From contig OZ025676.1 in the NCBI GenBank assembly GCA_964019335.1, positions 1-64,000 on the forward strand: DNA of 64,000 nt, in the 5' to 3' direction. The notes below the pieces were generated by a model, which saw only the letters and a program-made list of their open reading frames with translations, was not told where the DNA came from and made no database searches. The DNA is from Diplonema japonicum. Taxonomy: Eukaryota; Protista; Euglenozoa: Diplonemea. Of the stretch, positions 1,851 to 7,695 are shown in pieces (positions within the stretch are counted from its first letter, which is position 1; every line of letters starts with the position of its first letter). The position numbers and the translations under genes are program-made.

Positions 1851-2518
1851 GCAACCTACAGCTTGCAAAGGATCATATTCTCAGTGACAACAAGCCGTTG
1901 TGATAGTAAATAGACATCTACAAAAAGATAATCTCGATTTTAGTGCCATGGTATGTGGCAAGCCACCCTTGTGAAACTCGCAAGCCCCCTGTGCATCATT
2001 GGCAAAGGCCGCGGAGAGGCTACTTGCCAGACCTGGTGAAGCCTTGTTCGAATTCGGATGTAATGGGATGGGCCTAGGGGGATGCTGTTGACAGCTGCAG
2101 GATGAGTTTTGTGTCGAAGTTTGAGTGACTTTGAGCTAGCGAGAACTTGGTCTTCCGATTTCAATTTTTGATGTAGACCGCAAACTCGGTACGACTTCAG
2201 CACAAATATTATTACTACTACAACTACTGCCATATCATTGCCCTCTCGCGTCGATGTCCTTCTAGGAGGACCTGAAGCCCAACCTTAAGTCCTCTTGTCA
2301 TGTTTGCCCCCTACGTGGTGTTTGTTTCGTTATTTCGAGAAAGGTGAAAACACAACCAAGAAACAAGGACACTAACGACTGAAAACGGAAAAAAAGCTGT
2401 GATGGGGGAGTAGTGTTAGCAACGACCCCCGACTTAAGTAAGAAAGAAAAAAAGAAAGAAACTTAGAATTGTCACGACTGACTTTGTTGGACATCATAGC
2501 CGTTCTGTTCGTGTTAGT

Positions 2519-3993
2519 CTATCGATCAGTGCATACCTCGTGAAACAGTTTTTTCAAACGCCCCTTTAAAGCTGGCGCATCAGCTGGATCCATGCCCGAG
2601 AGGTAAGGTGCGAGCACGCCGTCGAGTATATCCTTCTCGGGTCCCAGGACGGCACCGCGTATTGCAGCCGCTATTTTAGCAGATTCCGTAGTGTCGAGTG
2701 CTTCGAGGAGCTCCACTGAGTGCTGCGACAGGCCAGCAACGACGTTCCCAGTGGCATCATACATCTCAATGTCGGCCGAGCCAGAAAGAGCGACAACCGG
2801 TTGCATGCTTCCCATTGTAGTACAGCTCTTGACGGTGGCGTGCAGCTTCACCCCAGGGTAAGATGCGTAACCCGGATAGTACTCCGTCACCATCGTGTTC
2901 AAAATCTCCTTACACGTCTCCACGGTAGGCATCTCGTCCTCGAAGGAAGGATCAAACACACCTAGCTCACCCTCCTCGACATCCTCCTCGTCGTCTTCGT
3001 CTTCCAAGTACGGGTGCTTCAAGAGCTCCTTTGCGGAAGGTCTGTCCTGCGGGTCAAAACTCAACGTCTTATATAAAAAGTCCATTTCATCATCTGTCAC
3101 CGTTGCAGGAAGGTAAGGGGCATCTGGCGGAAAGCTCCTCAAATCCTTTCTCGGCGTGGGACTCACGCTCTTAATGTAATTCTTTGCGTTTGCTGACTCG
3201 ATGTACGAGTACTGGCTCTCGCTGGGCGTGCCGATGACGTTTATGATGAGGTTCAGCTGCTCAAGGAAGTTGCTCCCTGGAAAAAGTGCCCGGTGTTTCA
3301 CAGAAAGCATCTCAGCGAAGATGCAGCCCACGGACCAGATGTCGATGGCATAGTTGTACTTCCCCCAGTTCATCAAGAGCTCAGGGGCACGATACCATCT
3401 TGTAACGACGTAAACGCTTTTCATGGTGTGCACATCGTCTCTTGCCAACCCGAAGTCACCTATTTTGAGGGAGCAATCCTGACTGACAAAGATGTTGTCA
3501 GGTTTTAAATCTCTGTGCACTACCTTTGCGGCGTGGACGGCTTGAACCTGTGATTGATGTGGTGTCGTACTGTACGGCATACCCCTGAAACGAGCTGTGT
3601 CGTGAACCATGATATGTGCTCCGGTGTGAGCGTAGGGCTATTTTTAAGGAGGCTTGTCAGATCCGTGTCCAGCAAGTCAGTCACGAGGTATATACTTTTG
3701 CAGTCACCCGAAATATCCTTTGGCTGCAATATGTTCAACAATCCCAGCACATTGTCATGCTCTTTAAAGTGTTTCAGCAACCGTACCTCTCTCACTAGCT
3801 TCTTCGCAGCATCCAACCCTTTAAAAGGATCTACAATCTTTTTAATGGCCACAGGAGTACCCAGCATGTGGTCAGTAGCAGAACACACTACACCGAAGGC
3901 ACCGTTACCAAGTGCCGCCTTTAGCTCGTATCTCTTTGGTACTTCAAAGAAGGTACCACTGACATTGTACCCTTCCAGTTCCTCCATATCCAT
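2519..3993 (-). CDS. Mitogen-activated protein kinase (ERK/p38-like) with C-terminal extension; intron 3548..3582
   Basis: GNGAFG, VAIKK, HRDLKPDN, DFGLAR, YVVTRWYRAPE. A 35-nt GTATG...CAG intron joins TQLVSG|VQAVH in frame. Confidence 0.93.
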
Positions 3994-4033
3994 TCCTGTG
4001 GTGGTGTGAACAAAAAGGGTAAACAAAAAAAAA

Positions 4034-4161
4034 TATATGAGTCAAAGGAAGTCTTTGTGAGACGCCCCCTTGTTCTCATCTTCTACCTGCACCTGTCCCC
4101 TTTCAGCAGCGGTTTCTCCTCCTTTGGTGGTCTTGCTGGCCTTCTCCCCAGCCTGGCCGTG
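4034..4161 (-). mobile_element. Short retroposon copy (128 bp, 5'-truncated)
   Basis: Near-identical to 13244..13369; flanked by A-runs on both sides (putative TSD). Confidence 0.75.
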
Positions 4162-4279
4162 AAAAAAAGATCCAAAAAAAATCCACAAGCGCACAGTTAG
4201 TGGGAAAGAAATAAGGTAAGTGCTGCTTTGCGGTGGAAAAGTGTGCATGTGTGCGTTTACGTTCTTCAGCTTCCAACAG

Positions 4280-5665
4280 CTACAAGATACCCATGAGACG
4301 TTTCTCTTTTGGGGTAAGGCTAAACTTCGTAACACGCAGCACCTGCTCTGTGTCCCCATCCCTGCTGCTAATGGTAACATCGCCAGCAGGGTCGTCGACA
4401 AGGATACTCCACGGCATCGACTCCTCACGGTGGAGGGAGGAGAGCCCTTCTAGAAACTCCCTCACGGCACTCTGCGAACCTTGCCCCATGATCATTTGCA
4501 TGTTTTCCTGTACCTGCTTCTGATGCTCTGCAAGGAATCCCCCAATAGTGATAGGTCTGCCTGCTGTAATGTGGCTGCTAAAGTCTACTTCCACCTTCGG
4601 TACCTCAACTGTCGCCTCCCTTGAGTGGAGCATAACACGTGAGAGGTCTTCTTTGCAGGTCACCACTAATTCTACCCTTCTGCCAGGCTTCGAAACGTCC
4701 TCCTGACTCAGCAGTGACGCCGTGTCCAGATACACAGAGGACATCGACGACATCCTGTCAGCGTAGCCCTTCAGATCTTCAGACCACCGTAGCTGATGTG
4801 CTAGATATGCAAGTGCCGCGTCGCAGTCATCAGGGACATAGATATCCCTCCCACGCCCATACTTCAGACCGACATCCTCACCAACCTTCATTTTGCTGAT
4901 GACCATCCGGTAGCACGTGGACGGTACCTCGTTGGGGAGCTCACTCAGGGGTGCCACCGTCAAGCTTGTTCCCACAACCAGAAGGAGATCCATATCTGAG
5001 TTCTCAGTCAAGCTGGCAGCGTAGCTGTCGTCAAGTGCCTCGCCGTAAAGTACTACGTCAGGGCGCATTCCTTCCCTACCGCATGACGTGCACAACATGG
5101 GCTCTGTTTTGTCGGGTGCTGTCGTGTCTTCTCCAGTAATGTCTTTCACTTTGTGCCGCAAATGATCGACAAAAGTAGCGAAACTCTCTTCCTTCCTGCA
5201 GTAGTGACAGCTTATAGTCGTCATCTTTCCGTGCACATTAAAGACCTTTTCCTTGCTCACTCCCGCTTCTGTCTCCAAGCAGTCGACGTTTTGCGTATAG
5301 ATTTTCGTGAGGAGACCGTGCTCCTCCAACAACTTGAGCATGAAATGCGAAGCAGTAGGCTTGAGCACCTTGTCTTTCAGCTTTAAAGAAAAGTCGCGCT
5401 TTACCTCCAGAAATGGCAGCTGACACTCCTCAAATACCTCCTTCGACACAACGCGTGATGGCTCCTCTGCGATGTAAGCCTGCTGCGCAGCAGAAGTGGA
5501 CAAGCGCGCAACATCTAGAGTATTGTAAAGGCCTTTAGCCGAGCGGAAATCGTTGATACCGCTGTTAACGCTGATCCCCGCACCTAGCAAGACACCTATG
5601 TTCTTGATGGTGCCATCTTTGATCTTAGCAGCAACGTCCTCTACAGTGTACAAACGCGGGAGCAT
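4280..5665 (-). CDS. Class I sirtuin (SIRT2/Hst2-like NAD-dependent deacylase) fused to a C-terminal ZPR1 A/B-like domain
   Basis: GAGIS..SGI.DFRS, YTQNVD, HG, CxxC...CxxC, RPDVVLYGE, GTSL. Tail has EDLSRVMLHSREATVEVPKV...ITIGGFL...SILVDDPAGD. Confidence 0.9.
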   Translation of the reverse strand: MLPRLYTVEDVAAKIKDGTIKNIGVLLGAGISVNSGINDFRSAKGLYNTLDVARLSTSAAQQAYIAEEPSRVVSKEVFEECQLPFLEVKRDFSLKLKDKVLKPTASHFMLKLLEEHGLLTKIYTQNVDCLETEAGVSKEKVFNVHGKMTTISCHYCRKEESFATFVDHLRHKVKDITGEDTTAPDKTEPMLCTSCGREGMRPDVVLYGEALDDSYAASLTENSDMDLLLVVGTSLTVAPLSELPNEVPSTCYRMVISKMKVGEDVGLKYGRGRDIYVPDDCDAALAYLAHQLRWSEDLKGYADRMSSMSSVYLDTASLLSQEDVSKPGRRVELVVTCKEDLSRVMLHSREATVEVPKVEVDFSSHITAGRPITIGGFLAEHQKQVQENMQMIMGQGSQSAVREFLEGLSSLHREESMPWSILVDDPAGDVTISSRDGDTEQVLRVTKFSLTPKEKRLMGIL

Positions 5666-5713
5666 TCCTGTGATGACAAGTTATTGAGTAGAAAGAATGA
5701 AATGAATAGAAAA

Positions 5714-6742
5714 CTACAAACTACCCAGTAGGCAGCACCTACTGTTGCCCTGCTGATAAGCAGCTGCTATCATATTTGAAAACTGTTCTGGTGATACGCG
5801 CCCGTCGGGGCTGAATTCATTTACTACAGAGGCGAGAAAGTCACTGGAAATTGAAGAGGACAGGTGCTTGCGCAAATCACTGTATCTGAGGTACGTTTTG
5901 CCAGGCTGCTTGAACATGTGGTACATCTCAAGTATCTCCTTTGCATCGCGCTCGTCGAAGTTGTCCATCCACGTGGGATGCACCACAGCAGTCGAGGGGC
6001 CGCCCCATTTGTTAATTGCCCAGTTCAGGTCCCTGGTTGATGCCTCAGTGAAGAAGCACCTTAGCATCTCCAAGTAATCTATAGAGCCGCTCCCGTCGGT
6101 GTCCAACTTTTCAAATGTTTCCTTGTCGATCTTCAATCCCGTCAGGTCCCCCAAGTCCTGCATCTCGTCCCAGTCAAGGGACCCGTTCCCGTCGTTGTCG
6201 ATGGCCTCGAAGCACCCCCGGATCCTGGTGTACTCCGCCTTTGTAAAAGGCAGATATGGCTTGGAACGTGTCCCTTTCGGCTTTACTCGGGAATGCCGTT
6301 GTGCCTCCTTGTCGGCATTGTGCAGCACCGTAGCTAGAGAAGCCTTCCTCTTCAGCTGCTTGGCGACATCTAGCAATGTAGCGATGCCTTGCACAGGCCG
6401 CTCCTTGAGGCCCTGCTTTGAACTAAAACCCGGCAACGGAGGCAACCGCATGCTGTGCTCCATACTCTTTTTCTGAACAGTAGCCTGCGTCACCCATATA
6501 GGTGGGAGCTTCACCCTGGTCTTCACAGGAGTCGGGCCTGTGTAGTCCCACTTGTGCGTGATTTTCTTTTTATTCTTTGCACCTTGGCCCACACCTGTAC
6601 AGTATGCCTCGACTTCCGAGAGAAGGCATTGCATGTATCCTGTGCGGCATGTGCACCTGCAGCTGCACTGGTGGCAAAAAAACGAAAATGGGGGTAAATA
6701 ATAGAGAGGAAGGCACCTTTTGTGGCACGAGTCAGTCTGCAC
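5714..6742 (-). CDS. EF-hand calcium-binding protein (5' end and first exons uncertain)
   Basis: Two canonical EF loops, DNDGNGSLDWDE and DTDGSGSIDYLE, plus a degenerate C-lobe. Confidence 0.8.
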   Translation of the reverse strand: MQTDSCHKRCLPLYYLPPFSFFCHQCSCRCTCRTGYMQCLLSEVEAYCTGVGQGAKNKKKITHKWDYTGPTPVKTRVKLPPIWVTQATVQKKSMEHSMRLPPLPGFSSKQGLKERPVQGIATLLDVAKQLKRKASLATVLHNADKEAQRHSRVKPKGTRSKPYLPFTKAEYTRIRGCFEAIDNDGNGSLDWDEMQDLGDLTGLKIDKETFEKLDTDGSGSIDYLEMLRCFFTEASTRDLNWAINKWGGPSTAVVHPTWMDNFDERDAKEILEMYHMFKQPGKTYLRYSDLRKHLSSSISSDFLASVVNEFSPDGRVSPEQFSNMIAAAYQQGNSRCCLLGSL

Positions 6743-7695
6743 ACTGCATTTTCTTAAAGAAGCACATAGTGTTATGTATAAAAAGGAACGAGAAATAATA
6801 AAAAAAAAGATATTCTGGCCACCGTAAGCACCAAAGCATTAATAACATAAAAGGCTGGGAGTGTAAATGGAGACGGAAAGGAGGGGCGGAAGGAAGGGGA
6901 GAAAGCGCTACAATCACCTCAGCAACAGGCCTTCCACACGCCGCAGGATAGTGTTGCATTCAGATGTGAGAAGCAACAAAAGGGGATGTTTTCGGTGGCA
7001 TAATAGAAATAGTCGGTGGGAGGGGAAGTCGTGTGCAAGCAGTAAGCTGTAAAGCCTCAGGGTGGAGAGGGGGCGGAGAGGATGTGTTTCCCTTCTTTTC
7101 TTGTCTTTTTTGTATTTCTTTCTTATTTCCTTGTCTTTTTTTTTTTTCTCTTTTTTTCATTCAGAGAGGAGAGAGAAGAGAGGGAATGGCGTAAATAAAA
7201 GAAAAAAAGCAAAGCCGTAAAAAAAATTATAAAAAATAAAAAACCATACTTGAAACCCGTCAAGGGGGGCGAAATTTTCCCATGTTCCTTGTTTTTTTAG
7301 CATTGTCGACCTGGCCTTTTCTCCATATGGCGTATCTTAACAACCCCGAGAAATTGACGATAAAAGTCGAGATCACCTATATGGCCTCTCTGAAACTTCC
7401 TCATGGGGTCTTAAGTATGAAAAAATTATAAAGAAAAAAAATCTCTCGTTTAGATCGCTGACACACCTTCAAAGCAAGGTACTGTTATACAGCTTTTGGT
7501 TGCACTCACTCCTGAAGGTGCCAGCTTCTTACGCTTTGGCCCGCATCTTTGCAAGAGAGACAGCAACACAACGAAAGGAAGAAAGATGCGGTGGGAAGGA
7601 AGAAGTTAATAAAAGAAAGAAAAAGAAGCGATAAAGCTTTTCTGTTGTTTGTTTGTTTGTTTTTGTTTGTTTGTTTGTGGTTCCCCTGTTTTGCT

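Follow-up and report, generated by a model that had tools for sequence, protein, structure and literature searches.

The window analysed here is a stretch of 64,000 nucleotides from Diplonema japonicum (contig OZ025676.1, positions 1 to 64,000 of the forward strand). Its long, evidently coding ORFs lie on the minus strand, and a one-strand gene order has been described for Diplonema papillatum (PMC10161547). A single stop-free ORF at 4280..5665 (minus strand, as are all features below) encodes a protein of 461 residues, in which Pfam detects SIR2 and jr-ZPR1 and no other family at E ≤1. The ORF, the Pfam matches and the contigs that span it define a fusion of a sirtuin with a ZPR1 A-type domain. 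The sirtuin domain (residues 1-305; 4751..5665) resembles SIRT2, SIRT3 and Hst2 and is delimited by the Pfam SIR2 match, PDB matches, a fold match and conservation. It is followed by a linker (about residues 306-322; 4700..4750), which is unconserved and of low model confidence, and by a ZPR1 A-type double-stranded beta-helix, or jelly-roll, without zinc finger (residues 323-460; 4286..4699), identified by Pfam, profile and fold matches. Within this domain, the model helices and alignments that include the ZPR1 structure 2qkd place a helical-hairpin insertion at residues 374-410 (4436..4546). The first-pass annotation had described one uninterrupted ORF with a sirtuin and then a ZPR1-like tail of about 130 residues at 4280-4680; the single gene and the nature of the tail were confirmed, but the domain starts slightly earlier, at about 4699.

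The gene lies between a MAP-kinase-like gene (2300-4026) and an EF-hand protein gene upstream of it (5714-6742; Pfam E 4.6e-13). The kinase gene is split by GT-AG introns of 35 nt (~3548-3582) and 32 nt (2505-2536); removal of the 35-nt intron restores the frame between two kinase ORFs. This intron is spliced out in the contigs of runs X10 and X6, and the 32-nt intron in X10. In most runs, numerous contigs match the intergenic segment at 4020-4160, between the sirtuin and kinase genes, at very high depth, and this segment is apparently a dispersed repeat. The EF-hand gene has contigs separate from those of the sirtuin gene in X10, X6 and X9. Short tandem repeats at 1-120 and ~1800-1880 flank the first ORF of the window on both sides.

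Assembled contigs cover the whole fusion ORF. X10 contains one contig of 1518 nt that matches 4174-5668 with zero differences or gaps, and X6 and X9 contain one contig each, matching 4107-5668 without differences or gaps and stopping at the same end base as X10. An X1 contig extends from 4116 to 7300. Beyond 5668, the X10 contig carries a 22-letter loose end corresponding to the 3' part of the spliced leader 'Euglenozoa 14' (PMC3795323). The leader joins at the AG 5669/5668, a trans-splice acceptor (5668..5669) that lies immediately 5' of the start codon and is preceded by a stretch of 73% pyrimidine. We take 'Euglenozoa 14' to be the diplonemid spliced leader. Along with the cis-introns, the arrangement of genes on a single strand and the nearest named homologue, from Sulcionema, it marks the window as most likely diplonemid. 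X10 and X6 were treated as RNA because short GT-AG introns are spliced out and the leader is present, so their RNA status is deduced from these features. Two studies account for the three runs X10, X6 and X9. X10 and X1 derive from one sample, and X1 may be the source of the window.

The contigs of X6, X10 and X9 delimit a probable monocistronic mRNA whose covered span is 4107..5667, with an undefined 3' end. Single contigs cross the junction between the two domains in X1, X5, X6, X10, X9, X11, X12 and X13. The fusion is thus apparently expressed as one mRNA. Contigs drop rare forms, and this statement applies to the main form; a minor tail-only mRNA may occur alongside it. Processing of the transcript into two mRNAs, which the first-pass annotation had named as grounds for abandoning the fusion, does not hold for the main form, since single contigs cover its whole ORF.

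The Pfam SIR2 family (PF02146) matches residues 28-239 with E 6.7e-39 and 134.1 bits against a cut-off of 24. Sirtuins are marked by a GAG-S motif, a QN-D motif, a catalytic histidine, four zinc-binding cysteines and a GTS motif. All of these are present in the fusion protein: GAG-S at 28-32, D39 and R41, QN-D at 125-128, His145, Cys153, Cys156, Cys192 and Cys195, and GTS at 232-234. To represent the fold, we used an AlphaFold2 model of the full-length protein built from five sequences (mean pLDDT 75.7, pTM 0.60), which replaced a single-sequence model with a pLDDT of 35.2. Residues 1-311 of the model align to SIRT2 (4rmj) with Z 29.2 and rmsd 3.0 over 280 aligned residues, and this value and the Pfam score identify the Rossmann and zinc-binding fold of sirtuins. 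The best PDB sequence matches are SIRT2, SIRT3 and Hst2 (top E 1.4e-29), and the trees described below held no named class I references.

Residues G28, A29, G30, S32, D39, R41, N126, D128, H145, C153, C156, C192, G232 and S234 are invariant in all 44 aligned relatives. These residues have known functional roles in sirtuins. Because the core catalytic residues are invariant, enzyme activity is likely, and we predict that the protein is likely an active NAD+-dependent lysine deacylase of SIRT2-like type. One position departs from this pattern. Residue 257, which follows the last core strand, is Ser here and is Asn in one of five C-terminal fusions, versus 38 of 39 other relatives; the N-terminal fusions described below keep Asn in 8/8. 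We take this Asn, absent from the fusion protein, to be that of the ribose-binding N-x-E motif of sirtuins, and its replacement may weaken NAD binding. In addition, 3/5 C-terminal fusions have a replacement at the position of P38, and Q125 is T in one homologue.

The tail matches jr-ZPR1 (PF22794) at residues 339-459 with E 2.3e-12 and 47.3 bits, where the cut-off is 27 bits, and the alignment takes in 124 of 125 model positions. In a search of the PDB, the C-terminal 140 residues match ZPR1 (2qkd) with E 2.8e-16, and the sole other match has E 1.6. A profile of five tails covers ZPR1 domain A from end to end with 52.3 bits and scores 33.7 bits against domain B; since domain A outscores domain B, we classify the tail as A-type. 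The first-pass annotation had called for a fold comparison of the C-terminal part, and this comparison returned ZPR1: residues 323-460 of the model align to residues 94-234 of 2qkd_A with Z 16.8 and rmsd 3.1 over 137 aligned residues, at a sequence identity of about 20%. The tail has both the beta-helix and the helical-hairpin insertion of the ZPR1 A/B domain, and the ZPR1 motif first quoted from the sequence is present in the translation. Linker residues 306-325 have pLDDT <50 in the five-sequence model. The matches listed by Foldseek and by a second comparison (VIA) were sirtuins, and a wider structure search recovered 2qkd; neither the tail nor the Chromera domain described below had a usable match in the ESM Atlas (best TM 0.44).

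The protein has no ZPR1 zinc finger, as had been noted from the sequence, because both of its CxxC pairs (153-156 and 192-195) belong to the sirtuin. CxxC pairs outside the sirtuin site are likewise absent from all five C-terminal fusions, and the Pfam scan of the 461 residues contains no zinc-finger family. The C4 zinc finger that directly precedes the A/B domain in ZPR1 proteins is therefore missing, as is the tandem of two ZPR1 modules found in the eukaryotic form; a single domain is present. We class the protein as a sirtuin that bears a true A-type domain of ZPR1, and not as a ZPR1 protein. In alignments of the hairpin, H, N, Q and M are invariant across the five C-terminal fusions, and the tip, polar/basic in mouse ZPR1, is hydrophobic in the tail.

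A homologue search against 1.84 billion representatives gave 7390 matches, of which the best 150 were listed. Among these 150, four homologues align over the full length at 42-49% identity. The closest named one is from the diplonemid Sulcionema specki, and the other three are ENA records. SIR2 and jr-ZPR1 occur together in 4/4 of these, and among the 69 proteins of the best 150 that were scanned, only these four carry jr-ZPR1 at E ≤0.001. In the same 69, zf-UBP is found in ten and an EF-hand in one. Across the five fusions, invariant columns number 67/294 in the sirtuin, 0/25 in the linker (residues 301-325) and 32/135 in the tail, so that the tail is conserved on a par with the enzyme. Three related runs contain 26 variants in the ORF: 18 synonymous, eight residue changes and no stops. 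The tail is thus maintained: the fusion is kept, its two domains are conserved to a similar degree, and the variants are mostly synonymous and without stops. In database annotation, three homologues carry both Pfam families, which makes the architecture visible to automatic annotation, and the reverse-order group carries SIR2 only.

Searches with the tail itself are uninformative on stand-alone forms because they also missed canonical ZPR1: a word-seeded search found relatives in 0/185 candidates, and a profile search found 3/7999, all of them members of the query. Pattern matches in metagenomes (0/172), prokaryote genomes (0/109) and viral contigs (0/107) contained no relative of the tail.

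The ZPR1-type domain also occurs in front of sirtuins. We compared the tail profile with 121 flanks of at least 50 residues, taken from the query and the best 150 of the 7390 matches, and recovered the five tails and six N-terminal matches at E ≤0.01; the lowest E among reversed flanks was 0.52. Four of the six N-terminal matches form one group, whose own profile matches 2qkd with E 1.3e-7 (next match 0.49) and aligns to the tail profile with an hhalign probability of 95.7 and E 1e-8. Of 7992 candidates, this profile picks out eight proteins, half of which are new and half query members; 8/8 carry SIR2. The named carriers of the reverse order are Chromera velia, Pavlova sp. (via a cluster member) and Alexandrium monilatum. 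The hairpin tip differs between the C-terminal and N-terminal fusion groups.

A larger sirtuin subfamily forms a branch that takes in 105 of 146 rows (FastTree support 99; support 91 in a 44-row IQ-TREE), and both fusion groups lie within it. The C-terminal fusions form one branch with support 99. The N-terminal fusions form one branch with support 94 in the tree of 146 of 151 rows, and with support 100 among 44 chosen rows, where P0057 nests inside the group. A tree constrained to place both fusion groups, with P0057, in one clade withstands the AU test (p-AU 0.747) and exceeds the quick free tree by 11 log units; adding P0147 to the joint clade gives p-AU 0.319. The fusion may have a single origin with a change of order, or it may have arisen twice.

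Two further sets of proteins were noted in these comparisons. Residues 1-88 of P0147 correspond to the second half of a ZPR1-like domain ahead of the sirtuin (E 4.8e-9 among the 121 flanks; Pfam E 0.0019); its sirtuin lies outside the subfamily in both trees, and its ZPR1-like part is probably truncated. The contig of P0147 was not found among 32 loci compared, where the best identity was 37%, and those loci contain no ZPR1-like domain. P0084 and P0114 share an N-terminal domain of 130-150 residues (37% identity) ahead of the sirtuin with a faint likeness to ZPR1; as a candidate third group they give Pfam E 0.21, an hhalign probability of 13 and no match to 2qkd.

With respect to function, ZPR1 has been reported to fold eEF1A using its zinc finger and helical hairpin (PMC11790920, PMC10869706), and a review assigns eEF1A binding to its A domain (PMC13350734). 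The lineages of the named carriers are associated with a different elongation factor, EFL, an EF1A-like GTPase that is widespread. For three diplonemids, PMC2664479 reports EFL in each and EF-1alpha in none, while allowing for co-occurrence. EFL has also been reported from dinoflagellates and from Chromera, where it was the only one found, and EF1A from Vitrella (PMC4217694); haptophytes as a group are among those studied for EFL (PMC2664479). All four named carriers (Sulcionema, Chromera, Pavlova and Alexandrium) thus belong to lineages for which EFL is reported at lineage level. With four of about 15 carriers named and perhaps only one or two events behind them, this pattern has little statistical weight.

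We propose that the SIRT2-like deacylase and the ZPR1 A-type domain, joined by a poorly conserved linker, would act together, with the tail as a client-binding tether. The client would be EFL rather than eEF1A, and the tail would hold this GTPase so that the sirtuin could strip acyl groups from it. From the conserved residues we infer enzyme activity; the function of domain A in ZPR1 suggests a protein-binding role for the tail, and the lineages carrying the fusion point to EFL as the candidate client. Lacking a zinc finger, the tail probably does not serve as a complete folding chaperone. A lone A domain on an enzyme would most simply be a tether, and a targeting role is plausible. To the complete proposal, a deacylase tethered to EFL by its ZPR1-type tail, we assign a rough probability of 0.35. 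It is favored by the retention of the core catalytic residues, the conservation and A-type character of the tail, the occurrence of the pairing in both orders, and the frequency of accessory binding domains in the subfamily (zf-UBP in 10/69). Against it, the protein lacks the zinc finger that works with the hairpin in Zpr1, and the domain is missing from most of the top relatives (4/69 scanned of the best 150 of 7390 carry jr-ZPR1). The hairpin tip is also unlike that of mouse ZPR1 and unlike between the two groups, whereas one conserved client would most simply predict otherwise.

The divergence of the hairpin would be expected if the tail were a co-opted binding module that sends the sirtuin to another protein or complex, unrelated to elongation factors. 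Group-specific invariants (HSREA, H, N, Q and M) replace the mouse ZPR1 residues, the two fusion groups differ at the tip, the subfamily also acquires zf-UBP and EF-hand domains, and ZPR1 itself has further partners according to reviews, such as SMN and EGFR. We consider this explanation possible but somewhat unlikely, as it leaves both the choice of an A-type domain and the placement of 4/4 named carriers in EFL-reporting lineages unexplained, the latter a weak point given the small number. Alternatively, the tail could pack on its own sirtuin and regulate or stabilize it, without binding any external client. Both domain orders would fit one docking site if the termini of the sirtuin are near each other; moreover, 11/11 matches of the two domain profiles in the large database carry SIR2 (three plus eight, seven of them query members). 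However, the profile searches also missed canonical ZPR1, which weakens the impression that the domain never occurs alone, the linker shows no conservation and is modelled with low confidence, and the full-length pTM is only 0.60. Such self-packing is, in our view, distinctly unlikely.

The substitutions in the sirtuin domain could be read to mean that the sirtuin half is a weakened enzyme, or a sensor of NAD or acyl-lysine, in a protein that mainly serves as a ZPR1-derived holdase for an elongation GTPase. The N257 position is replaced in 4/5 and the P38 position in 3/5 C-terminal fusions, and T stands for Q125 in one homologue, but the catalytic His, the N-D motif, R41 and the zinc ligands are kept and the N-terminal group has Asn in 8/8, so we regard this as quite improbable. 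The first-pass annotation had suggested canonical eEF1A as the target of deacylation. The A-type tail and the divergent EF-1alpha kept beside EFL in some species (PMC3699394) would agree with this, yet the idea is doubtful and to us very improbable, given the reports of EFL and no EF-1alpha in the three diplonemids covered (PMC2664479), of EFL as the only form found in Chromera, and of EFL encoded by dinoflagellates (PMC4217694). Virtually no weight attaches to an artefact or passive read-through, in which two adjacent genes or a misassembly would mimic a fusion. The local genes do run head to tail on one strand, but no stop separates the domains, single contigs cross the junction in eight runs, and four homologues at 42-49% identity share the layout; spanning contigs and homologues together refute a two-gene or misassembly reading for the main form.

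If the EFL tether were general, protists that use EFL in place of eEF1A would carry a dedicated EFL deacylase, in which a sirtuin is fused, on one side or the other, to the ZPR1 domain that binds elongation factors. We hold this wider proposal to be rather unlikely. If true, it would provide a regulator of EFL, a protein without functional analysis as of 2009 (PMC2664479), tying translation elongation to NAD+ in diplonemids, dinoflagellates, chromerids and haptophytes. Control in such protists is thought to be largely post-transcriptional (PMC10161547), and binding of EFL by the tail would yield a specific partner and, for these abundant marine protists, a connection of NAD+ to translation that experiments could probe. 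If the tail does not bind EFL, the protein is still an undescribed sirtuin architecture, of moderate interest. The retention of a zinc-finger-less ZPR1 domain on a sirtuin in diverged protists, in both orders, shows that this domain can serve as an independent module with a different task.

The literature searched, consisting of titles and abstract openings from mostly non-subscription papers, contained no description of a sirtuin-ZPR1 fusion. ZPR1, its KEGG number and ZNF259 are absent from the supplements of the D. papillatum genome paper other than the main supplementary PDF. The pairing, in its C-terminal and reverse orders, is undescribed in that literature, and the reverse-order pairing in Chromera, Alexandrium and Pavlova is new here. 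The protein resembles class I sirtuins (human SIRT2 and SIRT3, yeast Hst2, Leishmania SIR2rp1) in sequence, fold, catalytic residues and zinc site, but it belongs to a separate group of relatives in which insertions follow the first motif and also occur in the zinc domain; it further bears a ZPR1 domain and has replaced the usually kept Asn. With ZPR1/Zpr1 (ZNF259; 2qkd; PF22794), an eEF1A chaperone that works with the co-chaperone Aim29, it has the whole A-type beta-helix and hairpin in common. In contrast to ZPR1, it has no zinc finger, contains a single domain instead of a tandem, is joined to an enzyme, has different hairpin-tip residues and occurs in an EFL-reporting group.

The zf-UBP- and EF-hand-sirtuins belong to the same subfamily and have the same design of a binding module plus a deacylase, but their modules are different and they lie on separate branches, where they are known as database proteins only. 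The zf-UBP (ubiquitin-binding) sirtuins P0013, P0015, P0016, P0020, P0022, P0024, P0027, P0036, P0052 and P0069 form one branch, and the EF-hand sirtuin of the subfamily is P0019.
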